A stretch of DNA of 64,000 nt. Source: Bacillota bacterium. Lineage in GTDB: Bacteria; Bacillota_I; Bacilli_A; RF39; UBA660. The position numbers were made by a program, and so were the translations under genes. Below are positions 38,763-55,943 of this stretch, in pieces; position 1 is the first letter of the stretch; each line of letters starts with the position of its first letter. Below the pieces are notes generated by a model, which was given only the letters and a program-made list of their open reading frames with translations, searched no databases and was not told the origin of the DNA. The stretch spans positions 735,811 through 799,810 of the forward strand of contig SVAI01000001.1 of NCBI GenBank assembly GCA_015059495.1, written 5' to 3'.

Positions 38763-40961
38763 TTAATTTGTTTTTAAAGTGAAGTATCCTGGATTACCAT
38801 TTGTAGGATCATCAACACGAGCATATTCTTTGTCAGTATGAGATGAATCATATGTTGTACCTGCTCCACCTTTGATATTTATAGATTTTAGAAACATATT
38901 AGTGCTACTTGTAACTGCCGAAGTATTAAAATTGTTGCCAACATACAACGTTGTTAATGCACTCATTCCATTAAACATTGATAACATATTTGTTACATTT
39001 GAAGTATTAAAATTACTTATGTCCAAACTTGTTATACCTTTCGTTCCAGAAAACATTGCGGACATATTTGTTACATTTGAGGTATCAAGATTACTTACAT
39101 TTAAGTTAGTTAGACTACTCATTCCGGAAAACATTGCAGACATATTTGTTACTTTTGAGGTATTAAGATTACTTACATTTAAATTAGTTAAACTTCTCAT
39201 TCCATAAAACATATCTGACATATTCGTTACATTTGAGGTATTAAAACTACTTATATCAAAGCTAGTCAAACTATTCAATCCATAAAACATATAAGACATA
39301 TTTGTTACATTTGAAGTATTAAAATTACGCAAATCTAAACTTGTTAAATTATTCATTCCATTAAACATTGATGACATATCAGTTACATTTGAAGTATTAA
39401 AATTATGCAAATCTAAACTTGTTAAATTATTCATTCCACTAAACATACTGTTCATATTTTCTACATTTGAAGTATCAAAATTTCTTATATCTAAATTTGT
39501 TAGACCACTCATTAAAGAAAACATACTAGACATATTTGTTACATTTGATGTATTAAAACTACTTATATCTAAATTTGTTAGACTACTCATTTTATAAAAC
39601 ATAAAAGCCATACTTGTAACTTTTGAAGTATCAAAATTACTTATATCAAGTACTGTTAAATTGTTCATATTACTAAACATACTATTCATGCCTGTTACAT
39701 TTGAGGTATCAAAACTACTTAAATCTAACGTTGTTAATGCACTCATTGTAGAAAACATATATGACATAGTTGTTACTTTTGAAGTATCAAAATTTCTTAC
39801 ATCTAAAATTGATAAGCTTTGTAAATTGTCAAACATTGACACCATATTTGTAACTTTTGAGGTATTAAAAGTGCTTACATCTAAATCTGTTAGACTATAC
39901 ATTGCATGAAACATACTGTACATATTTTCTACATTTGAAGTATCAAAATTACTTATATCTAGTACTGTTAAATTGACCAATCCATCAAACATACTACCCA
40001 TATTCGTTACTTTTGAGGTATCAAAATTACTTACATCTAAAGTTGTTAATGCACCCATGCTAGAAAACATTTTAGACATGTCAGTTACTTTTGAAGTATT
40101 AAAGATATTTAAGTCTAGGTTTGTTAAACCCAGCATATGGTAAAACATATATGATGAATCACTATTCATATAAATAGTATCCGCTTCACTATAAAGATAT
40201 ACAGTTCCATTATCAAACCACGCATATACAAGAATAGGTTCATTAAAATCAGAAACTATAACCTTATCAGCACCTTCTGGTGGTGGATTCAAACTTCTCA
40301 CGATAGCTTTTATTGACGTATTTCTATCACTATATGACGCATAAGTACTACCAGTTGATTTTTTAAGATACTGGTTAAAATATTTACCATTTTTTAATAT
40401 TACTTCCTTATAATTCTTTTTTAATGTTGATCTAACTGTTATTTTAGAACTTAAAGTTTTACTTAATACTTCATCATTGTCAGCATCTTCTTTAATCCAT
40501 AATCTTAAGTTATATGATTTAGAGTCCCCTGCTGCTATAGTATCTTCATAGAACTTAGCAGCACTAGATGCATTAGATAACGTGGGTTCAACACTATTAT
40601 TATCGCCATATGTATGAATATGTCCATTAACATCTACTCTTAAATTTTCACCAGCAATTTGACTATCATTTAAAGTTTCCAAATTTATTGATATATCTGC
40701 TGCATGTTCACATATATTTGTTAAAGTAAATTTATATGGAGTTGTATATACACCCTTACCATCTTTCATTGGAAATGAATTAGTTAAACTAATAGCTTGA
40801 CTTCCCTCAGTAAAAGTTATTTCAAAACAATCTGATACTACTACATTTGTACTCTCTTGTGATACATTAAATACCCATAATGCATAAGAAGAACTTAGCA
40901 TTAAAGATAATACTAATAAAATACCAATAACTAATAATGTAATTTTATGTTTCTTCTTCAT
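38763..40961 (-). CDS. DUF285 (PF03382)-repeat surface protein, paralogue A
   Basis: N-terminal signal/TM, then about 17 tandem ~25-aa repeats of the form LTxLDISNFDTSNVTNMSSMFxGM, and a C-terminus GGAGTTYDSSHTDKEYARVDDPTNGNPGYFTLKTN. Confidence 0.75.
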   Translation of the reverse strand: MKKKHKITLLVIGILLVLSLMLSSSYALWVFNVSQESTNVVVSDCFEITFTEGSQAISLTNSFPMKDGKGVYTTPYKFTLTNICEHAADISINLETLNDSQIAGENLRVDVNGHIHTYGDNNSVEPTLSNASSAAKFYEDTIAAGDSKSYNLRLWIKEDADNDEVLSKTLSSKITVRSTLKKNYKEVILKNGKYFNQYLKKSTGSTYASYSDRNTSIKAIVRSLNPPPEGADKVIVSDFNEPILVYAWFDNGTVYLYSEADTIYMNSDSSYMFYHMLGLTNLDLNIFNTSKVTDMSKMFSSMGALTTLDVSNFDTSKVTNMGSMFDGLVNLTVLDISNFDTSNVENMYSMFHAMYSLTDLDVSTFNTSKVTNMVSMFDNLQSLSILDVRNFDTSKVTTMSYMFSTMSALTTLDLSSFDTSNVTGMNSMFSNMNNLTVLDISNFDTSKVTSMAFMFYKMSSLTNLDISSFNTSNVTNMSSMFSLMSGLTNLDIRNFDTSNVENMNSMFSGMNNLTSLDLHNFNTSNVTDMSSMFNGMNNLTSLDLRNFNTSNVTNMSYMFYGLNSLTSFDISSFNTSNVTNMSDMFYGMRSLTNLNVSNLNTSKVTNMSAMFSGMSSLTNLNVSNLDTSNVTNMSAMFSGTKGITSLDISNFNTSNVTNMLSMFNGMSALTTLYVGNNFNTSAVTSSTNMFLKSINIKGGAGTTYDSSHTDKEYARVDDPTNGNPGYFTLKTN

Positions 40962-41040
40962 AATACATACCTACTAACTATTTTTTTATCGTCTTTACTA
41001 TATATAAATAATAACATATTTTTTTAAACAAAAAAAGATA

Positions 41041-41913
41041 CTATTTAAAAGTATCTATATAATTTACAACTTCATCTATAGTTTTATTAAAGTCACTATA
41101 ATTAGTATTAAACCATTTAATATTCATTTGATTATTAAACCAAGTATATTGTCTTTTAGCATAATGTCTAGAGTTCTTTTTTATTAAATCTATAGCTTCA
41201 TCTAAAGATATATTACCATCAAAATATTGATATAATTCTTTATATCCTATAGCAGTATTAGTAGCTTTACTATTAATATGATTATCATAAAAGTATTTAA
41301 CTTCTTCTAATAATCCTAAATTGATCATCTCATCTACTCTATCATCTATTCTTTTATAAAGATTCTCTCTATCAGTAGTTAATCCAATAAATATAACATT
41401 ATCATATAATAACTTATCACCATTATTATTAGATTCATTTTCTTTATTTAAAAATCTAACTAATCTTTTTCTATTATTAATATGAATATCCATATTTTTA
41501 TCTTTTTTTAATGCTAATTCATATAATTCTTCATTAGATAAATCATCATAAGTATTAACTTCTTTAGTTTCTTCTTCAAAATTATAATCATATAATAATG
41601 CTTTTAAATATAAACCAGTACCACCAACTAATACTATGTTTTTATCTTTATTATCTTCTAATAACTTTCTAGCATCTTTTTGATAATCATACACAGTATA
41701 ATTGGTTTTAGAATCTACAAAATCAAATAAACAATGAGTAACTCCATCCATTTCTTCTTTAGTTGGTTTTGCAGTTCCAATATCCATTCCCTTATATACT
41801 TGCATAGCATCATTATTAACAACTATAGCATTATACTTTTTAGCTAATTCTACAGATAATTTAGTCTTACCAACACCAGTTGGCCCTACAATTGATATAA
41901 TCATATTTCTCAC
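41041..41913 (-). CDS. miaA: tRNA dimethylallyltransferase MiaA
   Basis: P-loop IVGPTGVGKT. 290 aa. IPPT family. Confidence 0.9.
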   Translation of the reverse strand: MRNMIISIVGPTGVGKTKLSVELAKKYNAIVVNNDAMQVYKGMDIGTAKPTKEEMDGVTHCLFDFVDSKTNYTVYDYQKDARKLLEDNKDKNIVLVGGTGLYLKALLYDYNFEEETKEVNTYDDLSNEELYELALKKDKNMDIHINNRKRLVRFLNKENESNNNGDKLLYDNVIFIGLTTDRENLYKRIDDRVDEMINLGLLEEVKYFYDNHINSKATNTAIGYKELYQYFDGNISLDEAIDLIKKNSRHYAKRQYTWFNNQMNIKWFNTNYSDFNKTIDEVVNYIDTFK

Positions 41914-41931
41914 CTGTTTACATATTATACA

Positions 41932-42723
41932 CTATCTTTTCTTAATTGGGTATCCCCCATCTAACAATAAAAACTGATCATGACTACTAGATAATTCACT
42001 ATCTAAAAAAGCCTTAACTTGTGCATCAGTAGTTCCATTTTTATATACATCAGTTACATCAATTACCATAACATTATCAATATTAATATTTAATTCAGAA
42101 AAGTTAGTATCATTATCAACACCAGTCTTCATATTACTAACATTAAATCCTAAATATTGACTATCACTATTAACATTAACAGTTAATATTTCACTATACA
42201 AATTCCAACTAGAATATTCACCACATAAACGATTCTCTGCTTTTAATGTATAAGTTATAGAACCTATTTTTAAATATGGTTGATCATTAGTACAATTAAT
42301 TGTATAGTTTCTAAATACATTATATCTAACATATATTTTACTTGAAGTAGCTCTTTTCTTTAATAATCTAGAACTATTAATAGTTTGACCAAAAGAAGCA
42401 GCAGTTGGTTTTAGTCTTATATATGATGATCTTTGTGTTGACTCATCATTATACGCTACAGCATTTGTACCTAATGTCCACGCAGTACTATTAAATGCAC
42501 CAGTTTTAATACTATCAAAATCTCCATCTATAATAGAATTATATAAAGTAGTAAATTTACCAATAATAACATTATCATTTAAATCATTTAATACATTTTC
42601 ATTAGAACTATTAATTAAAGTTTGATATTGAGTATATGTAGCCATTATCATTAATGTCATAGTTAAAAAAATAATAAAGAAAGAAAACATTAATGAAGTT
42701 GCAATAAATCCATTCTTTTTCAT
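41932..42723 (-). CDS. hypothetical membrane-anchored protein
   Basis: 263 aa. N-terminus MKKNGFIATSLMFSFFIIFLTMTLMIM. S/T/N-rich ectodomain. It lies downstream of the bacteriocin-like peptide genes. Confidence 0.35.
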   Translation of the reverse strand: MKKNGFIATSLMFSFFIIFLTMTLMIMATYTQYQTLINSSNENVLNDLNDNVIIGKFTTLYNSIIDGDFDSIKTGAFNSTAWTLGTNAVAYNDESTQRSSYIRLKPTAASFGQTINSSRLLKKRATSSKIYVRYNVFRNYTINCTNDQPYLKIGSITYTLKAENRLCGEYSSWNLYSEILTVNVNSDSQYLGFNVSNMKTGVDNDTNFSELNINIDNVMVIDVTDVYKNGTTDAQVKAFLDSELSSSHDQFLLLDGGYPIKKR

Positions 42724-42750
42724 TATCTACTCACCTACTATACATATTTT

Positions 42751-42782
42751 ATCATAATAATAAAAAAAGAGATAGTTAAATC
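42751..42782 (-). terminator. intrinsic terminator after the bacteriocin-like peptide genes
   Basis: Minus strand AAAAAGAGAT-ttaact-ATCTCTTTTTTT. Confidence 0.5.
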
Positions 42783-42791
42783 TCTTTTTTA

Positions 42792-42947
42792 TTAACGACA
42801 TACTTTACCACTTATAGCCATTCGAATAGATGTACCAAGACTTCTACCTAACTCTAAAGCAGTATTAACAACTCTAGCAGCAGCATTCATTAGTGTAGCA
42901 CTAAACCATCCACCACCAACAACATTAATTAGTTCTTCTTCTCTCAT
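42792..42947 (-). CDS. double-glycine-leader bacteriocin-like peptide 1 (51 aa)
   Basis: Not in the ORF track. AAGGAGG RBS. Leader MREEELINVVGG (hydrophobic at -4, -7, -12; Glu at -8). Predicted amphipathic 39-aa core GWFSATLMNAAARVVNTALELGRSLGTSIRMAISGKVCR. Confidence 0.6.
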   Translation of the reverse strand: MREEELINVVGGGWFSATLMNAAARVVNTALELGRSLGTSIRMAISGKVCR

Positions 42948-42958
42948 GATTTACCTCC

Positions 42959-43105
42959 TTATTTTCTACAACCGTATGGTCTAAAAAAGCCATCAATTAT
43001 GCCAATAACGAATGCACCACCAGTAATTAATGCACCGATTAGTCCAAGACTAATTGCACCACCTTTAACATCTTTTAATTCTTCTTTACTAAGTTCTATT
43101 TTCAT
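42959..43105 (-). CDS. double-glycine-leader bacteriocin-like peptide 2 (48 aa)
   Basis: Not in the ORF track. GGAGG RBS. Leader MKIELSKEELKDVKGG fits the LSxxELxxIxGG consensus. The 32-aa core AISLGLIGALITGGAFVIGIIDGFFRPYGCRK has GxxxG-type motifs. Its stop overlaps the RBS of peptide 1. Confidence 0.6.
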   Translation of the reverse strand: MKIELSKEELKDVKGGAISLGLIGALITGGAFVIGIIDGFFRPYGCRK

Positions 43106-43115
43106 AACATACCTC

Positions 43116-43550
43116 CTATAATAAAACATTAATTATTTTATTTATTATTAGTTCTTTATTCGAATACAAACTAACATCTATAAAAGTATTTAATATACCA
43201 TCATCTAGTTGGTCTACTTCTAAAGTTACAATTTGATAATTATTCTTAGTTAATTCATCTGAATATATATCACTAACTGTTATATTATTTATATTTTTGT
43301 TTTCTTTGTTAATTTTAATCATATCTATATTTTTATATTTATTAGTATCTAAATAATTAACAGTTAATTCTATCTTACATATATCATCACAACTAACATA
43401 TCCTTTTATTTTTTTAACATCATATATTTTAAAAATAAATAAAGATATTATGATAATACTAAAACTAATTAATATTAAATATATTAATATATTATATTTT
43501 GGTTTTAAACTTCTTAAATAACTTATATTATCAACCATTAAAACCACCAC
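43116..43550 (-). CDS. short membrane-anchored accessory protein of the bacteriocin exporter (HlyD/LcnD-like, truncated)
   Basis: 144 aa. N-terminal TM then a small beta-rich domain. It overlaps the ABC gene by 20 nt and precedes the peptide genes by 10 nt. Confidence 0.4.
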   Translation of the reverse strand: MVVLMVDNISYLRSLKPKYNILIYLILISFSIIIISLFIFKIYDVKKIKGYVSCDDICKIELTVNYLDTNKYKNIDMIKINKENKNINNITVSDIYSDELTKNNYQIVTLEVDQLDDGILNTFIDVSLYSNKELIINKIINVLL

Positions 43551-45579
43551 TTACTACTAAATCAAAATGATAACTAGGCTTAAAATGAGAAATAATAATG
43601 AAGGTTTTATTATTATAATAGTTAAAAATATTATTAATCATTTTATTAGCATCACCTTCTTCTACTGCACTAAATGTTTCATCAAAAATTATTATTGGGT
43701 TATCTTTTAATAATTCTCTTGCCATGATAATTCTAGATCTTTCTCCACCACTCAAATTAGAAACATCTTCTCTTATCATAGTATCTAATCTTAAAGACTT
43801 CTTATTTAATATATCATTAACTTCACATAATTCTAATACAGTATTTAATTTATTCTTATCAACATCCATATTTAAAGTAATATTATTAAAAATAGTATCA
43901 TTAAATATAGCTTCATCTTGAGATATATAAGAAATATTATTTCTAATAGTATCTAAACTATAATCTAATATATTAATATTATTAATTTTAATACTACCTT
44001 TAATTGGATTATATAATCTATCTAATAATTTAAATAAAGTACTCTTACCACTACCACTTTTACCCATAACTAATACTTTACTATTTTCTCTTATTTTTAA
44101 AGAATAATTCTTAATTGGATAATCATACATATTATAAGAATAATCAATATTATTAAACTCTATATCACCATTTTTAAATGACTCTTTTTTCTTATTACTT
44201 TCTTCCTCCAACATAAGAAAATCATTTATTTTAATAAAACTTCTTCTTATATATACATACTTAGGTATTAAATTAATAATATCTTTTATTGGATTAATAA
44301 AAAACATATATAAAGAATTATAAGTAATTAAATCTAATAATTCTAAAGTATTATTAATTACAAACATAAGAGCAAAACTATTTAAGATAAATAAACCTAT
44401 TTCTAATATAAAAGTATTAATAAAATTATAAATATTTATTTTATTATTAATTGAAAAGGTATTATATAAATATTCATATATTTTATTATTTAACTTACTC
44501 ATAGTAAAAGATTTATTATTCTTAACACTTATAATGTGATTTAAACTATTAGTAAGACTAGAATTAAAACTAGTCTGATAATTAATATTATCCTCAATAT
44601 AATTATTAATTGGTTTAATCCATATTAAATTATTAATTAAATAGATAAATATAACTAATAATAATATAATTGTTAATTTCACATTAATAATCATTAATAC
44701 AATTATAGATGTTATAACTAATAATAAATTTAATACTAAAGTAACAAACATATTAGCAAATAATTCTTTTAAGTTATTTAATTCATTAACTCTAGTAATT
44801 ATTTCACCACTGGTTCTATTACTTATAGCATTCAAAGGGATATTAAATATATGTTTAATAAAATCAGGTAATAAACTACAATCAATATTTTTATTAATAT
44901 AATTTTCAAAATAAGTTCTTAAATAATCTAATATTACTTTTAATAAAGTTATTATAAAGAATATTAAAATAATAAAATAAAACATACCCTTATTATTACT
45001 ATCTACATTACCAATAATTACCTTTATCATAAAAGAACTAATTATGGATACAATAGTTAGTAATAAACTAGTAATAAACATTCTTATTATTAATCTATTA
45101 TCACTTTTAATATATCTTAAAAATATATTCAATAATTTATTATCTTTAGAGTAATTAATTACATTAGATATTAAACTAAATTCAATAATAATATCTTTAT
45201 AAATACTTTTAAATTCATCATACTTTAGTTTTCTTAATCCTTTAGCAGGATCCATAACTAATATATACTTTTTAGTTATTTCATAAACTACTATATAATG
45301 CCTTAAACCATTTTTTAATTCAACGTAGGAAATAAACGGATAAACTAATTTACTCTTTATTAAATCATCAAAACTAATTCTTGTACCCCTTCCATCAAAC
45401 CCGTACCTTTTAGCTGCAGCAATTAAATTAAAAGCACTAATACCTGATGAACTAATACATGAATCTATTTTTATCTTTTCTAGTGATATATTACCACCAT
45501 AATATTTAATAATAGATAGTAAACAAGCAGCACCACAATCCTTAATATCTTGTTGTCTAACAACTACTTTTTTAAACAT
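43531..45579 (-). CDS. bacteriocin-processing ABC transporter with N-terminal C39 double-glycine peptidase domain
   Basis: N-terminus VVRQQDIKDCGAACLLSIIKYYG (C39 Cys motif). Six TM helices. NBD GKSGSGKST, LSGGERSR, Walker B-like IIIFDETFSAVE. Confidence 0.8.
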   Translation of the reverse strand: MFKKVVVRQQDIKDCGAACLLSIIKYYGGNISLEKIKIDSCISSSGISAFNLIAAAKRYGFDGRGTRISFDDLIKSKLVYPFISYVELKNGLRHYIVVYEITKKYILVMDPAKGLRKLKYDEFKSIYKDIIIEFSLISNVINYSKDNKLLNIFLRYIKSDNRLIIRMFITSLLLTIVSIISSFMIKVIIGNVDSNNKGMFYFIILIFFIITLLKVILDYLRTYFENYINKNIDCSLLPDFIKHIFNIPLNAISNRTSGEIITRVNELNNLKELFANMFVTLVLNLLLVITSIIVLMIINVKLTIILLLVIFIYLINNLIWIKPINNYIEDNINYQTSFNSSLTNSLNHIISVKNNKSFTMSKLNNKIYEYLYNTFSINNKINIYNFINTFILEIGLFILNSFALMFVINNTLELLDLITYNSLYMFFINPIKDIINLIPKYVYIRRSFIKINDFLMLEEESNKKKESFKNGDIEFNNIDYSYNMYDYPIKNYSLKIRENSKVLVMGKSGSGKSTLFKLLDRLYNPIKGSIKINNINILDYSLDTIRNNISYISQDEAIFNDTIFNNITLNMDVDKNKLNTVLELCEVNDILNKKSLRLDTMIREDVSNLSGGERSRIIMARELLKDNPIIIFDETFSAVEEGDANKMINNIFNYYNNKTFIIISHFKPSYHFDLVVSGGFNG

Positions 45580-45657
45580 ATCTTATTTCTCCCTTCATAA
45601 GATATATTATCGATAAGTTGCTTATTTCCTTTTTTTTAAATAAAAAAAATGCAAAAT

Positions 45658-46425
45658 TTACTTAAATTTTACATTTTTACTATTTTTCTTAGATGTCTTC
45701 TTTACACCTTTAGCGTCAATAACCATATTTTTAATATCATTCAATTCTTTCCTTAAATCCTTAGCTAAGTTTGGATAGTTCTTAATTAAACGATTTTGCT
45801 TAAATCTAATCTTAGCAAGTTGACTTTGATGTTTACTTTCAAACATTTGAGGTATTAATTTTAATTTATCCTTCTTTAATTCTTCAGCAACTATTAATCT
45901 TGAACGTAAGTTATAAGCAATAAATACTGACCAAACAAAATCCGCAATAACTACAATAAATAATAAAACAGATGCCATAATTAAATACTTACTACTAATA
46001 CTTAATATTATATTATCTACTACTGGATTAATAATATATAAAATAATTAATATACCAAATCCAAATAGAATAGAATTTTGTAAACATATTCTACCATTAA
46101 TACTATCTCTTCTATATGAATAATCCCACCATTTATTATTAAATATTTTTTCAAATATATAACTAGTAAAATATTCTAATATAGATGTTATTAACATACC
46201 CATAACAAATACTATTATTGGATCATCTAAATATTCTTTTAAAGTGTATATAGTTAATATAGCACCAAAGCCATAAATTGGACAAAGAGGTCCAAATAAG
46301 AAACCTCTATTAACCCATTTCTTTTGTAAGAAACTACAATATATAACTTCACTAATATATCCTATTACACTATAAATAATAAATTGAATAAAAATATAGC
46401 TTAAATTATACATAATTATCACCAA
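45658..46425 (-). CDS. polytopic membrane protein (DUF1113 / 'ABC-transporter type IV'-like)
   Basis: 255 aa, ~6 TM helices. FGPLCPIYGFG and WWDYSY motifs are reminiscent of PF06541. A possible immunity or accessory role is speculative. Confidence 0.35.
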   Translation of the reverse strand: MVIIMYNLSYIFIQFIIYSVIGYISEVIYCSFLQKKWVNRGFLFGPLCPIYGFGAILTIYTLKEYLDDPIIVFVMGMLITSILEYFTSYIFEKIFNNKWWDYSYRRDSINGRICLQNSILFGFGILIILYIINPVVDNIILSISSKYLIMASVLLFIVVIADFVWSVFIAYNLRSRLIVAEELKKDKLKLIPQMFESKHQSQLAKIRFKQNRLIKNYPNLAKDLRKELNDIKNMVIDAKGVKKTSKKNSKNVKFK

Positions 46426-46427
46426 AC

Positions 46428-47702
46428 TTACTTAGAAGTTTCCTTAATATTTTCATTCTTAGTATTAGGATTTAATTGGCCATTACTTCTTTCTCTAGCT
46501 CTACGTTTAGTTTCTTCAACTAATTCTTCATCAGTCATTACGTGTCCAGAATCACCAGTAGATCCATTTGCACCAAATCCAACATTAGGACACTTCTTAC
46601 TTCCTAAAATACAATCCATACATGTACTGAACTGTCCTTTAACATTATCCCATCCATCAATATAATGGAATAAAGCAAGTATAATCGATGGAACAAAGAA
46701 TATTAATACACAAGCAATAGCTCTTCTTAATAAACTTATAGCTTGTTTTTTAATACTATCATCTTTTCCTTCAAGTACAGCCTTAGACATATCAAACATA
46801 CCCATAATTATAATAACAATAGGAGCAATTATTTTAATAATAGTAACAAATATACCAACTAATCTAAATGATGCAACAACTTTAGGATTTTCATTAGCAT
46901 CACATATTTCTAATGCATCAGATACATTCGCAATTGTTGGATCTTCAGTTGTTCCAGATTCACCAGAACCTGAACCTTCATTACCAGAATCACAGTCAAT
47001 ATTAACTCCCATGGCTTTTTTAAAGTCATTACAAGAAGCATAATTTAATGCAGTTTGATATTCACCAATATTAGTTAGTGCTGAGGCACAATTCTTTTGC
47101 ATTTCAGAATAAGTAGAATCATCTTTAGAAATATATCCACTAGAAACATAACCATTTATCTCAGAAACTTTACTTCTAATTTGTGAAGCGTAAGCATTAG
47201 CCTCATTTTTACACTCAGTATATTTTGTTGAAACTTTACCTTCAGCCCAACATTTTGTATAATCAAACTTCATTGAAGATACATTTTTACATTGAGTATT
47301 TAAATTTGTTAGTTCCTCTTTAGCACTATCGACATGTCTTGTATCACCAGTATCTTCCGCATAAGTCAAACTATTTAAAATAGTAGCCTTTTTTTCAGTA
47401 GCATCAGCAATCATTTGATCATAGTCATAATATAAATATAATTTAGAATTGTAAACATAACTATATGATGGACACTTCTTGCCAGATATAAATGTATCTT
47501 TTACATTTTCCCAGTTAGAAATTGGTAACCCATCAACATTAGAAACATTACCTTTATCATCTACATCAAAAGTAATTTTATATTTATTAGCAGCCAAAGA
47601 ATTATCATAATTACTATAACCACATGATACAGCATAAACATTACTTTTTAAAACAAATAAACTAAAAATTGCAAAAATAATTAAATTTAATTTTTTCTTC
47701 AT
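46428..47702 (-). CDS. secreted Cys-rich protein with C-terminal membrane-spanning region
   Basis: Signal peptide MKKKLNLIIFAIFSLFVLKSNVYA. The ectodomain has ~16 Cys. Two to three C-terminal TM helices and a basic cytoplasmic tail. Co-operonic with the 255-aa protein (2-nt gap). Confidence 0.35.
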   Translation of the reverse strand: MKKKLNLIIFAIFSLFVLKSNVYAVSCGYSNYDNSLAANKYKITFDVDDKGNVSNVDGLPISNWENVKDTFISGKKCPSYSYVYNSKLYLYYDYDQMIADATEKKATILNSLTYAEDTGDTRHVDSAKEELTNLNTQCKNVSSMKFDYTKCWAEGKVSTKYTECKNEANAYASQIRSKVSEINGYVSSGYISKDDSTYSEMQKNCASALTNIGEYQTALNYASCNDFKKAMGVNIDCDSGNEGSGSGESGTTEDPTIANVSDALEICDANENPKVVASFRLVGIFVTIIKIIAPIVIIIMGMFDMSKAVLEGKDDSIKKQAISLLRRAIACVLIFFVPSIILALFHYIDGWDNVKGQFSTCMDCILGSKKCPNVGFGANGSTGDSGHVMTDEELVEETKRRARERSNGQLNPNTKNENIKETSK

Positions 47703-47787
47703 TTATATCAACTCTTCTCTATAATTATAACATAAAATTACTATATTTCTATCATAAATATTTAATACTTAACATATTTATTATTAG

Positions 47788-48282
47788 GTGATATTAATGA
47801 ATAAAAAGAATCTTATATATGTATCTTTAATTAGTCTTATTTTAATACTTGGTATATATTATATAACTATACCAAATAACATGTTAGAGAATGTTGAACC
47901 AACCATATCTGAATCAATTGATAATACATCAACTGAAGAAATAAGTTCTCTTGTAGGTCTACGTGTAGAAAATGAAGAAATGGTAATTGCTAAACTAGAG
48001 GACCTTCAAAACACTATTACTGATACATCCAAATCTTCAGAAGAAAAAAACATAGCATATGAACAACTAAAAAACTTAAACCAGCTTAAAGGTAAACAAG
48101 AAGAAATTGAAAAATTAATTAAAAAAGAATTTAACTTTGATTCATTTGTTAAAATAAATGAAGATCAAATAAATATAGTTATTTCAAATAATAATCATAA
48201 TAAAGAATTAGCAAATAACATTATTAAAAAAGTACAATCTATGTTTAAAGAAAAGAAATATATAACCATTAAATTTAATTAA
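47788..48282 (+). CDS. SpoIIIAH-like protein (putative)
   Basis: N-terminal TM, coiled coil, and a C-terminal FDSFVKINEDQINIVISNNN...ANNIIKKVQSMF block resembling the SpoIIIAH/YscJ-like fold. Confidence 0.35.
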   Translation: MILMNKKNLIYVSLISLILILGIYYITIPNNMLENVEPTISESIDNTSTEEISSLVGLRVENEEMVIAKLEDLQNTITDTSKSSEEKNIAYEQLKNLNQLKGKQEEIEKLIKKEFNFDSFVKINEDQINIVISNNNHNKELANNIIKKVQSMFKEKKYITIKFN

Positions 48283-48308
48283 CATATAATATACTAGAGA
48301 GTGATTAT

Positions 48309-48509
48309 ATGAATATATTAACAATTAGAGAAAAAGAAATATTTGATTTATTAATACAAAATAACACTACTAAAGAAATATCTAAATTATTACATATTAG
48401 TGAAAAAACAACTAGAAATCATATTTCGAATGTAATACAAAAACTGGGAGTAAAATCTAGAACTCAAGCACTAGTAGAACTAATAAAACTAAAGTGTATA
48501 AAAATATAG
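48309..48509 (+). CDS. gerE: GerE/LuxR-family HTH transcription regulator
   Basis: 66 aa. LTIREKEIFDLLIQNNTTKEISKLLHISEKTTRNHISNVIQKLGVKSRTQA is a LuxR-type HTH of GerE size. Confidence 0.6.
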   Translation: MNILTIREKEIFDLLIQNNTTKEISKLLHISEKTTRNHISNVIQKLGVKSRTQALVELIKLKCIKI

Positions 48510-48554
48510 GTCTATTTAAGACCTATTTTTATATACTTTATTAGAGGTTATATT

Positions 48555-49448
48555 ATGTTAAAAAGAGCTATTAAAAAAAGAATATTAATTACTATAACTA
48601 CTCTAATAATATTATTAATAATTTATATAATACCAATAAATAAAGAATTTAATGAAACTATATCTTATAACAATAATATTAATTATATATATTTACTTAA
48701 TGATAACAAATTAATTAGAACTAGTATTATTTCAAATGAAGAAGATACTCTAAACAAAGTTAAAGAAATAATTAATAACTTAAAAGATAATAACTATAAT
48801 GATAAATTAAAATCAATAATACCTAAAGATACTAAAATAATAAATTTATCTTTAGATAATAAATTATTAAAGATTAACTTTAGTAAAGAACTATTAAATA
48901 TACCATCTAATCTAGAAGAAAAATTAATTGAATCACTTATATATTCTTTAACTGAACTAGATGAAATAGATTCAATAATGATATTTATTGAAGATAAATT
49001 ATTATTGCAATTACCTAACTCTAATAAAAAACTACCAAGTATATTAACTAGAGATTATGGTATTAATAAAATATATAATTTAACTAGTATTAATAATGTT
49101 AATAAAGTAACTATATATTATTATCAAGAATTAAATAATAACTATAATGCCGTACCAGTAACTATATTTACTAATGATAATACTGAAAAAATAGAAGTTA
49201 TTATTAAAGATTTAAAATCATCTTCTATATACCAAACTAACTTAGTATCATTTCTATCAAGTAATACTAAATTATTAGATTATGAATTAACCGAAAATAA
49301 AATAAAACTTAATTTTAATCAACCCCTATTAGACACATTTTATAATGATTCCCTACTAGAAGAAGTTAAATATGCTATATCTAATTCTATTAAAGATACT
49401 TATAATGTTAAAGATGTAATAATAACTGTTAATAATAAAGAAATATAA
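48555..49448 (+). CDS. GerM-like (GerMN-domain) membrane-anchored protein, putative
   Basis: Signal anchor and two repeated ~120-aa modules of Germane-domain size. Context next to gerE and the spoIIIAH-like gene. Confidence 0.3.
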   Translation: MLKRAIKKRILITITTLIILLIIYIIPINKEFNETISYNNNINYIYLLNDNKLIRTSIISNEEDTLNKVKEIINNLKDNNYNDKLKSIIPKDTKIINLSLDNKLLKINFSKELLNIPSNLEEKLIESLIYSLTELDEIDSIMIFIEDKLLLQLPNSNKKLPSILTRDYGINKIYNLTSINNVNKVTIYYYQELNNNYNAVPVTIFTNDNTEKIEVIIKDLKSSSIYQTNLVSFLSSNTKLLDYELTENKIKLNFNQPLLDTFYNDSLLEEVKYAISNSIKDTYNVKDVIITVNNKEI

Positions 49449-49456
49449 AAAGAATA

Positions 49457-50383
49457 TTATGGTTTTAATATTCTCTTCTTTGTTTTCTCTTCTTTAAGTG
49501 CTCTATCAAGTTCTTTTATCATATCTATATTATTATATACTTTAATATTATTATCAAAACTAATATTAAATTCATCACTTACCATTGCTTCACCATCAAC
49601 ATTAGCATTAATAGGTTTTCTAGATACAATAGTAATATTATCAAGCATGTGTTTTTCTACGCCATTCATATCTTCATGTTTACCATCATGCATTTTAAGA
49701 ATAGTCTTTAAAAGTTGTATATGACCAAAACCATCTACTAAATAAACATCAAATAAATTGTCTTGAATATCTGCAGTTGGTGCAATATTAAATCCACCAC
49801 CATAATATCTACTATTGCATACAGCTACAGTAGCAAACTTACCTGCTATAGCAGTATTATAAATACCCTCTTTAAAATATATTTCTAATTCTTTAGGTCT
49901 ATAACTAGCAAAATGTGCTATAGCACTTAATGGATATCTAAGTTTTTCAGGTATTATTCTATTATGAATAAATCTATCATCATTAGCAGCATCAGCATCC
50001 ATACCAAAACAAGCAACATTAATAAAATATTTATCATTTATTTTACCAACATTTACTTCTCTAATATCTTGTTTATAAGTAGACATTACTCTATCAAAAT
50101 CATTACCAGTACCATTAGGTAAATAACCTAACGTAGCTTCTGTACCAACAATAGCATTTAATACACGGTTGATCATTCCATCTCCACCAACTGCATATAT
50201 AATACTATTCTTATTAGCATATTCTTTAACTAAATCTTCAGTTGATTTTTTCTTACTATTAGTAACACATTTATAATCCATATTATGATTAACACAATAT
50301 TTAAATATTTCATTACTTAGTTTATTACAATCTTCATTTCTAAAACTATTTAATATAAACACATGTTTCATAAAACCCTCCAC
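49457..50383 (-). CDS. diacylglycerol/lipid kinase (DagK/YegS family)
   Basis: DAGK catalytic motif IYAVGGDGMINRVLNAIVG. 308 aa. Confidence 0.75.
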   Translation of the reverse strand: MEGFMKHVFILNSFRNEDCNKLSNEIFKYCVNHNMDYKCVTNSKKKSTEDLVKEYANKNSIIYAVGGDGMINRVLNAIVGTEATLGYLPNGTGNDFDRVMSTYKQDIREVNVGKINDKYFINVACFGMDADAANDDRFIHNRIIPEKLRYPLSAIAHFASYRPKELEIYFKEGIYNTAIAGKFATVAVCNSRYYGGGFNIAPTADIQDNLFDVYLVDGFGHIQLLKTILKMHDGKHEDMNGVEKHMLDNITIVSRKPINANVDGEAMVSDEFNISFDNNIKVYNNIDMIKELDRALKEEKTKKRILKP

Positions 50384-50432
50384 TAACTATTTTTATTATA
50401 AATAAAAAGAATAAAACTATCAAGTTTTATTC

Positions 50433-52397
50433 TTATGTTGTTTTTAAAGTAAATAACCCAGGTTTTCCATTATCTGGATCATCTACTCTAGCTAGCTTAG
50501 TATTTATATAACCAACACTTGATTTAGTTGTACCAGCACCACCAATTAAATTATCACATCCAGCAAATACACTGTTAAAATAATCAGCGCTTATTCTTTC
50601 AGTATCCCATTCACTAGAAACATATATAGTTTCTACAGATGTCATATCTTTAAACATATTATTAATATTACTAAGAGAAGAAGTATTAAAACTACTTAAA
50701 TCTAAAACTTTTAATGTTGAAGCACCCTCAAACATACTTGCCATACCTGTAACTTTAGATGTATTAAAACTTGTTATATTTAAAGATGTTAGTTTTACCA
50801 TATTACGAAACATCCATGACATATCTGTTACATTTGAGGTATCAAAATTAGATAAATCCAATTCTTCTAACTTAGTATCTCCGCTAAACATTACTGACAT
50901 ATAGTTTACATTTGATGTATTAAAAGAACTTAGATTTATACTTTTTAATTCATGCATATCACTAAACATACTCGTCATATTCTCAACTTTGGAAGTATCA
51001 AAATTACTCAAATCTAAGGATTGTAATGCCCATAAATTAGAAAACATATAAGACATATTTGTTACATTTGATGTATTAAAATTACTTATATCTAAATATG
51101 TTAACGAGCCTAAATCATCAAACATATTACTCATATTTTCAACCTTAGAAGTATCAAAATTACTTAAATCTAAGGATTGTAATGTCCATAAATGAGAAAA
51201 CATATTTGACATATCAATAACATTAGATGTATCAAAACTACTTAAATCTAAATAAACCAATTCAGTATTATTATCTCCCTTATCAAACATCCATGACATA
51301 TCAGTAACTTTTGAGGTATCAAAGTTAGATAAATCTAATCTTTCAATACTACATAGATACGAAAACATATGAGACATGTTTTCTACATTGGAAGTATCAA
51401 AGGAACTAATATTAAGATTAATAAGACCCTGATCTTCATTAAACATACTACTCATATCAGTTACATTAGACGTATCAAAATTAGATAAGTCCAATGTCTC
51501 TAAATGAATCATACCATAAAACATACTAGACATATCAGTAACTATAGATGAATCAAATCTAGACACATCAATTTCACTAAGATTGTAAAGAGATGAAAAC
51601 ATATGTGACGAATCTTCGTTTAAAAATATTTTAGGACTATCACTATAAATATAAATAATACCATTTTCAAACCACATCAAAACGTCACTTTTTGAATCAG
51701 CAGTAGAAACTACAACATAAGTATCATTAGAAGGAGCTTCTTGAGAAAATAATACTTTTTCAACATTACCATTATTTCCAGATAATTCATATATTTTATC
51801 ATTAATATACTGACCATCCATAAGTTTAGCACCAACTTCTACTCGCTTTAATCTAGAAATTACAACTACTTTTGAATAAAACTCCTTATCAGCACTTTGC
51901 TCAACTGTAGAATTTTCATCAATGTATAATCTTAAATCAAAGCTTTTTGAAGTATTACCTTTTAAAGAACCTGACTTGATATTTTTTGATGATATTGCAT
52001 TATTATTTATTATAGAACTATTATCATTATTTTCTATATCCCCTAAATTAAACGGAGCAAACTGATTAATTTTTACTTTAACAGCACTTAAATCAATAGT
52101 ACTACCATCTAAAGTTTCAAGATTAACATCATAGTCTATATCATAATTACACACATTACTAATAGTAAAAGTATATGGATCTAATTCTCTTGCATCTTTA
52201 TCACTTAAAGGTATAGTGTTTGTTAAGTTAATCGCATTACCATCACTAAAAGTTATTTCAAAGCAGTCAGTTCTAACAACATTACTACCACTCTGTGACA
52301 CGTTAAAAATATAATATGCATAAGATATACCTATTAATATACTAGTAACTAAAAAGATACCTATTACACATAATAGTATTTTACTCTTCTTACTCAT
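50433..52397 (-). CDS. DUF285 (PF03382)-repeat surface protein, paralogue B
   Basis: N-terminal signal/TM (homologous to the N-terminus of paralogue A), about 13 LDLSNFDTSNVTDMSxMF repeats, and a C-terminus GGAGTTKSSVGYINTKLARVDDPDNGKPGLFTLKTT. Confidence 0.75.
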   Translation of the reverse strand: MSKKSKILLCVIGIFLVTSILIGISYAYYIFNVSQSGSNVVRTDCFEITFSDGNAINLTNTIPLSDKDARELDPYTFTISNVCNYDIDYDVNLETLDGSTIDLSAVKVKINQFAPFNLGDIENNDNSSIINNNAISSKNIKSGSLKGNTSKSFDLRLYIDENSTVEQSADKEFYSKVVVISRLKRVEVGAKLMDGQYINDKIYELSGNNGNVEKVLFSQEAPSNDTYVVVSTADSKSDVLMWFENGIIYIYSDSPKIFLNEDSSHMFSSLYNLSEIDVSRFDSSIVTDMSSMFYGMIHLETLDLSNFDTSNVTDMSSMFNEDQGLINLNISSFDTSNVENMSHMFSYLCSIERLDLSNFDTSKVTDMSWMFDKGDNNTELVYLDLSSFDTSNVIDMSNMFSHLWTLQSLDLSNFDTSKVENMSNMFDDLGSLTYLDISNFNTSNVTNMSYMFSNLWALQSLDLSNFDTSKVENMTSMFSDMHELKSINLSSFNTSNVNYMSVMFSGDTKLEELDLSNFDTSNVTDMSWMFRNMVKLTSLNITSFNTSKVTGMASMFEGASTLKVLDLSSFNTSSLSNINNMFKDMTSVETIYVSSEWDTERISADYFNSVFAGCDNLIGGAGTTKSSVGYINTKLARVDDPDNGKPGLFTLKTT

Positions 52398-52451
52398 AAG
52401 TCTTACCTCTACTATAAATATAATAACATAATAAAAAGAATAAAACTAGTT

Positions 52452-55895: not shown

Positions 55896-55943
55896 AACAC
55901 AATATAAATTATACCACAAATTTTAAAAAAGTATAGTAAAAAT

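Follow-up and report, generated by a model that had tools for sequence, protein, structure and literature searches.

The 64-kb window described here (64,000 nucleotides of contig SVAI01000001.1, assembly GCA_015059495.1, from a Bacillota bacterium; positions are those of the window unless another contig is named) carries two genes, A and B, which lie on the same strand with a gap of 9.47 kb between them and encode paralogous repeat proteins of the PARCEL/DUF285 family. Both proteins strongly match PF03382 (DUF285; E 1.9e-90 and 299 bits for A, E 3.2e-79 and 263 bits for B, cut-off 25) and TIGR02167 (PARCEL; E 2.8e-130, 423 bits and 15 stretches for A, E 5.5e-95, 310 bits and 12 stretches for B, cut-off 30). 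Consistent with these matches, a first-pass annotation of the stretch had described two same-strand paralogous DUF285 open reading frames (ORFs) 9.5 kb apart, and its coordinates proved exact. It had also reported a shared N-terminus and C-terminal domain, and both parts (the N-terminus at about amino acids 1-190 and the C-terminal tail) can indeed be aligned between A and B, which are 42% identical over their full length (BLASTP). Protein B corresponds to NCBI MBE6158926.1, whose entry name is "BspA family leucine-rich repeat surface protein". The genome, a small one of about 25% G+C from an uncultured gut or rumen member of the Bacilli, bears sporulation genes and encodes at least four paralogous PARCEL proteins; besides A and B these include P0003 and P0004 (471 and 473 amino acids (aa)), found in the same assemblies.

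The architecture of both genes is given in Table 1. Each protein has one hydrophobic helix, at the N-terminus, and no second hydrophobic segment. The C-terminal tail follows the pattern ...GG(A/S)GT...YA(R/H)(V/I)D...PGY(F/L)T(L/Y)K in A and B; it goes with PARCEL arrays and without other passenger domains, since tail and array occur together in 29 of the 32 tail-bearing proteins and in 29 of the 53 array-bearing ones (long proteins with the same N-terminal module, the N-module).

Table 1. Positions of the two PARCEL/DUF285 genes, their parts and selected other genes in the window
Feature	Position	Strand	Basis
Gene A, 732 aa, PARCEL/DUF285 repeat surface protein, strain-variable slot	38763..40961	(-)	ORF and PF03382/TIGR02167 matches
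A, aa 1-27: basic N-terminus, hydrophobic helix, S-Y-A; candidate signal peptide or signal anchor	40881..40961	(-)	Sequence
A, aa 28-190: unannotated beta-sandwich N-module, invariant C45 and C84	40392..40880	(-)	Profile search, AlphaFold2
A, aa 191-278: linker and solenoid N-terminal cap	40128..40391	(-)	Alignment with B
A, aa 279-668: 15 tandem PARCEL units of 26 aa (78 bp) each	38958..40127	(-)	Tandem Repeats Finder, anchor spacing
A, aa 669-732 and stop: C-terminal cap/tail (...GGAGTTYD..EYARVDDP..GNPGYFTLKTN)	38763..38957	(-)	Conserved with B
Gene B, 654 aa, PARCEL/DUF285 repeat surface protein, conserved paralogue	50433..52397	(-)	ORF and PF03382/TIGR02167 matches
B, aa 1-185: signal/anchor helix and beta-sandwich N-module	51843..52397	(-)	41% identity to the same part of A
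B, aa 273-587: 12 PARCEL units	50637..51581	(-)	Tandem Repeats Finder, anchors, AlphaFold2
B, aa 588-654 and stop: C-terminal cap/tail	50433..50636	(-)	Alignment with A
Upstream of A: AT-rich hairpin and T7 after miaA, motif TATGTTATTAT..TATAGTA, ribosome-binding site	40962..41040	(-)	
Upstream of B: motif TATGTTATTAT..TTTATAGTAGAGG as in A	52398..52451	(-)	
263-aa protein beside slot A	41932-42723	(-)	
Bacteriocin-like locus, leader peptides	42792-42947, 42959-43105	(-)	
Bacteriocin-like locus, accessory protein, 144 aa	43116-43550	(-)	
Bacteriocin-like locus, exporter	43531-45579	(-)	
424-aa secreted protein	46428-47702	(-)	
T2SSE/PilB-type secretion ATPase, 429 aa	19797-21086	(+)	

The upstream motif TATGTTATTAT..TTTATAGTAGAGG is common to all four paralogues, as it also occurs at positions 3925-4000 of contig L070 and 3915-4000 of contig L072. 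It resembles an extended -10 element followed by a ribosome-binding site, which suggests similar transcription signals in the four genes. In a consensus scan no terminators were found, and promoter-like sites were rarer than in shuffled sequences. Some candidate features were considered and rejected: A and B as lipoproteins (no lipobox), A and B as sortase substrates (no LPXTG) and antisense ORFs within the arrays as genes, one antisense frame being merely open, with 5-8 stops.

Composition of the repeat arrays

The repeat unit of both genes measures 78 bp or 26 aa, the anchor residues being exactly 26 aa apart, instead of the ~75 bp first annotated. Array A contains 15 units and array B 12, where 13-17 per gene had been counted, and all 27 units are different. 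Tandem Repeats Finder reported a period of 78 with 14.7 copies and 75% matches in A; matches at this period reached 74-75% in both arrays, and the 156-bp period in B gave 80-85%. The description of the repeats as long and near-identical had to be abandoned: the nucleotide identity between units averages only 73% within A (maximum 88.5%, longest perfect direct repeat 33 bp), 61% within B (maximum 79.5%, longest 20 bp) and 63.5% between A and B (maximum 82.1%, reached by one pair; longest 31 bp). At the amino-acid level the mean identity between units is 60% in A and 51% in B. Old unit duplications are found in A (units A10/A11, 88%, and A13/A14, 87%), units 5-6 and 7-8 of B correspond to an old 156-bp duplication, and unit 4 of B has a 3-aa insertion.

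The abundance of short perfect direct repeats within and between the genes, also reported in the first pass, is real. We counted 71 exact direct repeats of at least 12 bp in A, 18 in B and 68 between A and B, for 0.9, 1.0 and 1.8 respectively in shuffled sequences, so that short exact repeats are about 20-80 times commoner than in shuffles. Homologous units would be expected to show such an excess. A six-frame motif scan found no PARCEL-like repeats elsewhere in the 64-kb window.

Stability of array length and of the interval among strains

Repeat numbers were compared across strains, as the first-pass annotation had recommended with the remark that identical counts would speak against length variation; no variation was seen at assembly level, and for B the counts are identical. 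The exact B protein is present on 10 contigs, and B is a 654-aa gene in all 11 long contigs (11/11) on which a DAGK or GerE neighbour is matched exactly. The remaining three proteins of the 90% cluster of B, at 94-95% identity, likewise show 12 units and an array free of indels, the sole length change in B orthologues being two extra C-terminal residues. Because look-ups with the exact DAGK and GerE proteins returned the same strain cluster alone, only these members of the 90% cluster inform on slot B in more diverged strains. The exact A protein is present on 4 contigs. In a sister strain (L049), A has 732 aa and differs by four substitutions, all outside the array, the DNA of which is 100% identical.

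Neither homopolymers of 8 or more nor simple sequence repeats (SSRs) were found within or upstream of A or B. The strain differences at the A7/T7 tracts upstream of A are mostly substitutions, and these tracts therefore give no sign of a slippage switch. Rapid change of repeat number is thus not supported at assembly level. Loss of the intervening 9.5 kb, for which the repeats shared by the two copies had been seen as a substrate, was not found either, since every assembly spanning the region retains it.

One contig of 10095 bp (L005, Logan SRR7109575) runs exactly from within B to within A. Its ends look like a k-mer assembly break inside both arrays, rather than biology; breaks of this kind could pass for structural variation.

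Whole-gene variation in slot A

Slot A is the position between miaA and a transglutaminase-like gene. Its alleles were gathered by using the invariant S20 protein as a handle and by a metagenome scan, which yielded contigs L006 and L010. At least five alleles were obtained with the same neighbours, of 732, 763, 634, at least 688 and at least 529 aa. Between the window and L006, which carries the 763-aa allele, the neighbouring proteins are 97-100% identical and A only 58% overall (N-module 84%, linker 39%, tail 58%). A 250-bp sliding comparison gave 94-100% nucleotide identity in the flanks and 56-73% in gene A, with sharp borders. Alleles differ in length by 98 and 31 aa, neither of which is a multiple of 26, and their arrays diverge from end to end. 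From one more distant relative (L010, about 80-84% nucleotide identity) A is absent, miaA being joined directly to the transglutaminase-like gene; this relative retains most of the intervening genes (miaA through gerM) and is without the DAGK gene beside slot B.

The N-module DNA of the L051 allele is 90% identical to P0003, and it has no stretch at least 78% identical to A of the window. These identities suggest that paralogues have exchanged sequence or that the allele lineages are old. The proposal of a probable antigenic or adhesive variation system, made in the first pass, can be kept in part: the proteins belong to an exported repeat family with such roles and A is highly variable between strains, but the suggested mechanism of slippage and deletion is not retained.

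Two side observations concern the same slots. In L010, slot B (positions 259-2184) is occupied by a different ORF of 641 aa composed of three ~200-aa segments, each of which ends in G.G..(D/E)PY(V/I)F; similar endings are found in other N-module proteins. The 263-aa protein beside slot A has a prepilin-like N-terminus (MKKNG followed by FIATSLMF, with no E5) and no Pfam match. The 3' third of its gene (41900-42150) is 79-81% identical between strains, with flanks at 96-100%, and is by this comparison a second, smaller variable segment adjoining slot A.

Predicted structure

Structure prediction of the repeat domain, also suggested in the first pass, was carried out with AlphaFold2. In the single-sequence model of B the array is a beta-solenoid with predicted local distance difference test (pLDDT) values mostly in the 70s to low 90s, and the N-module (pLDDT ~25) is unmodelled. 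With an alignment, the N-module of A was predicted at pLDDT 82.5 as a long helix, over residues 3-37, and a beta-sandwich. The best Foldseek matches of the B model, all weak, are without exception leucine-rich repeat (LRR) proteins (TLR8, RP105, EUBVEN_01088 and SDS22), the match to EUBVEN_01088 (4h09) having E 0.05 and a TM-score of 0.13-0.18. A sequence search of the PDB found no solved PARCEL structure and weak LRR matches alone. For the N-module, Foldseek returned weak matches to generic beta-sandwiches (TM-scores 0.15-0.36). The 78-bp periodicity of the DNA reflects the solenoid architecture of the protein: periodicity in the DNA of a surface-protein gene need not mean a contingency switch, and in A and B it is the mark left by a solenoid fold.

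The N-terminal module as a family

The N-module comprises ~150 residues in which C45 and C84 are invariant, and it is preceded by S25, Y26 and A27, which are invariant or nearly so in family alignments. It has no match in Pfam or NCBIfam, even at permissive thresholds (up to E 10 for the N-terminus). A word-index homologue search with the N-terminus of A gave 6 matches and missed A and B themselves, so that an exhaustive profile search was needed; its profile, which includes aa 1-185 of B, matched 5139 representatives of 50%-identity clusters, always at the N-terminus, and 590 of these matches had E 1e-30 or better. The module is thus very common (more than 5,000 clusters at 50% identity) and yet without a model in the domain databases searched, which makes it the less ordinary element of this locus. 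Among 69 sampled N-module proteins it is fused to DUF285 in 30, to Flg_new in 16, and also to LRR_5, GH5 cellulase and other domains; it also occurs alone, in proteins of ~190-220 aa.

In two cases N-module genes were found next to Tad-like genes. Contig L070 (31-5416) carries P0003, composed of an N-module and PARCEL repeats, as the last gene of a Tad-like operon containing a CpaB-like protein, a T2SSE ATPase and TadB- and TadC-like proteins. Contig L065 (1-5503), from an unrelated Bacilli metagenome-assembled genome (MAG), carries TadB/TadC, a Flp-like 86-aa ORF, two TadE-like ORFs and a ParA-like ORF, and then a 533-aa N-module protein. The contig scan, performed with a 5-sequence alignment, returned 9 loci and contributed chiefly taxonomy and L065. 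No Tad-like genes are present beside A, B or the two stand-alone module genes examined, the neighbours of which are housekeeping genes, and we treat the Tad link as a lead only.

Relation to known systems

A and B are members of the known PARCEL/DUF285 family ("Liste_lipo_26", TIGR02167), and the features looked for as marks of contingency loci, of BspA-type LRR_5 proteins, of type IV or Tad pilins and of TasA/SipW-type proteins were not found in them. They share with the family repeats of ~25-26 residues with the motif (F/W)(D/N)TS.V..M..MF, units that are all different, an N-terminal membrane-targeting sequence, several paralogues in a small genome and a gene content that varies between close relatives. 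They differ in having no lipobox, in place of which they have the helix, the beta-sandwich N-module and the conserved C-terminal tail, in a unit of 26 instead of 25 residues and in the absence of 5' contingency tracts of the variable number tandem repeat (VNTR) type. Their host also differs from the PARCEL mycoplasmas, being an uncultured member of the Bacilli with sporulation and cell-wall-associated genes. In the original description, PARCEL units are nearly all unique within an ORF, and where these genes vary in phase in mycoplasmas, the variation is ascribed to 5' VNTR tracts distinct from the repeats (Roske et al. 2010, PMC2996958). LppQ and LppC of Mycoplasma mycoides, surface antigens in the literature, are examples of the family. 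The function of DUF285 is otherwise described as unknown (10.1101/2023.03.21.533155). However, deletion of the gene AJ89_07570 of Lactococcus lactis IBB477, which encodes DUF285 with MucBP and Big_3, lowers adhesion to polystyrene and mucin (PMC5071367), and this loss supports an adhesive role for the family. AJ89_07570 resembles A and B in its DUF285 domain and differs in its MucBP and Big_3 context and in being described as cell-wall-associated.

With BspA-type and other LRR surface proteins A and B have in common the predicted beta-solenoid of short repeats, weak LRR_4/LRR_8 matches and a putative ligand-binding role at the surface, but A and B have no match to LRR_5 (PF13306) and no significant structural match. 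The Vlp/Vsa proteins of mycoplasmas and other slipped-strand systems are likewise surface proteins with intragenic tandem repeats belonging to a multigene family. In such contingency systems the units are nearly identical or SSR tracts are used, and length is polymorphic within clones, whereas the units of A and B are 61-73% identical and their array length is stable across strains.

Proposed function and alternative explanations

We consider it probable that A and B are LRR-like solenoid proteins acting as surface proteins or adhesins, of which B is conserved and A has been diversified by replacement of the whole gene. An exported ligand-binding or adhesive protein is the most likely function in view of the export signal, the LRR-like fold and the literature on LppQ, LppC and the Lactococcus DUF285 protein. 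Such a protein would be exported by the Sec pathway through its N-terminal helix ending in S-Y-A, which would then be cleaved by signal peptidase or serve as a signal anchor, and the ~150-residue beta-sandwich with its two invariant cysteines may form a disulphide-stabilised stalk. The 12-15 LRR-like turns of 26 residues build the solenoid, with the conserved hydrophobic positions as its core and the variable polar positions as an exposed surface that may bind ligands, and the conserved C-terminal cap closes this four-part layout. The units are old and diverged, the arrays keep their length and diversity is generated per whole gene. Replacement in slot A is most likely caused by homologous recombination in the conserved flanks or by exchange with other paralogues, and would be under diversifying selection on an exposed protein. 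In this uncultured, mollicute-like gut lineage, one conserved and one hypervariable PARCEL gene in fixed slots could serve as a strain marker and as a candidate target of phage or host selection.

Several points weigh against this proposal. None of the Foldseek matches of the B model is significant (E 0.01 or weaker). The dyad symmetry of PARCEL repeats is not detectable by a reverse-complement test less elaborate than the MEME-based procedure of the original paper: the consensus unit and its reverse complement agree at 38 of 78 positions, against an average of 39.6-39.9 for shuffles. A and B have no recognised anchor (LPXTG, lipobox, SLH or cell-wall-binding repeats), and retention at the cell is assumed. 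Moreover, the assemblies are consensus sequences in which minority length variants within a population are invisible, and the strain sample is a handful, some near-identical contigs possibly coming from related samples.

The view of the arrays as a contingency system, in which slippage or unequal recombination would change their length at high frequency and recombination between A and B would delete the 9.5 kb, appears very improbable to us. It would account for the abundance of short exact direct repeats, up to 33 bp long inside a gene and up to 31 bp between the two, for the old duplications A10/A11, A13/A14 and the two-unit 156-bp one in B, and for the range of 3 to 16 units across the wider family. 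However, the mean unit identity is just 61-73%, the length of B is unchanged at 5-6% protein divergence and that of A among near-identical strains, and the differences of 98 and 31 aa between A alleles do not correspond to whole 26-residue units and are spread over the whole gene. No SSR tracts are present and the deletion is seen in no assembly; in addition, the interval holds miaA, spoIIIAH, gerM and the DAGK-type kinase gene, and its loss would probably be costly, which counts against deletion between A and B. The sporulation genes around A and B (spoIIP, spoIIIAH, gerM and the GerE-type regulator, with cotJ genes nearby) and the weak fold match of the N-module to the endospore appendage protein Ena3A raise the question of whether the two proteins are spore-surface or sporulation-associated components instead of vegetative adhesins. 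We hold this to be extremely unlikely, as the neighbours are transcribed separately, A and B each have their own promoter-like motif, and the family is widespread, fused to many passenger domains and without any match to a specific spore-coat family.

The N-module might also be the subunit or docking module of a Tad/type IV-like or TasA-like filament, A and B then being adhesins borne on a fibre; this is in our opinion quite unlikely. The absence of Tad-like genes beside A and B, the housekeeping surroundings of the stand-alone module genes examined and the lack of any match of the N-module to the N_methyl, TadE and SipW-signal models all argue against it, although P0003 is last in an operon with a T2SSE ATPase and TadB/TadC-like proteins and the Tad-like gene set of L065 is followed by an N-module protein. 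The N-terminal helix, beta-sandwich and cysteine pair do form a pilin-like layout and the stand-alone proteins of ~190-220 aa would suit a major subunit, but the conserved motif is placed at the outer end of this hydrophobic helix, whereas in prepilins the motif is at the inner end. The motif of the N-module, G-x-S-Y-A-x-W, resembles SipW-type signal peptides, which would favour a filament. No camelysin/TasA domain was matched in NCBIfam or Pfam, with a search for sipW limited to the window, and a class III signal peptide is not recognised either, there being no G before the hydrophobic helix of A or B. The weak fold matches include archaeal bundling pili, the CFA/I pilin and Ena3A, but at TM-scores of just 0.15-0.36 (0.25 for TasA-like archaeal pili). 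A broader view would make the N-module a large undescribed surface-display system of uncultured gut Bacilli, with interchangeable passengers (PARCEL, Flg_new, LRR_5 and GH5), Tad-like export or assembly in some genomes, and slot A as a hot spot of passenger swapping under phage or host pressure. We regard it as speculative and unlikely, and maintain the proposal of exported solenoid proteins, one conserved and one replaced as a whole gene.

Genome setting and neighbouring genes

The window has a G+C content of 25.4% and matches a 946-kb contig of JGI sample 3300021318 at 100% identity; its relatives are labelled as uncultured Bacilli, Tenericutes or Acholeplasmatales MAGs. The interval and its flanks contain miaA, the 263-aa protein, two double-glycine-leader peptides, the 144-aa accessory protein, a C39-peptidase ABC exporter, a CmpB-type protein, the 424-aa secreted protein, spoIIIAH, the GerE-type regulator, gerM and the DAGK-type kinase. 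The bacteriocin operon that the first-pass annotation had placed in the interval is thus confirmed by the two leader peptides and the C39 exporter. The leader peptides (MREEELINVVGG followed by GWFSAT..., and MKIELSKEELKDVKGG followed by AISLGL...) are conserved in strain L006, and the best NCBIfam match of the exporter is the Mbov_0121 family.

The 424-aa protein has a signal peptide and is rich in Cys in its N-terminal half; it also has a Gly/Ser linker and, towards the C-terminus, hydrophobic segments. It gave no significant family match (DUF1090 being sub-threshold, E 0.0066), and its gene forms one string with those of the CmpB-type protein and the exporter. Outside the interval, the T2SSE/PilB-type secretion ATPase of Table 1 lies ~18 kb from A and is followed by a 328-aa ORF. 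In a sister strain (99.8% identical), an extra Peptidase_S41 gene (L003, 5295-6431) is inserted relative to the window at about position 55940.

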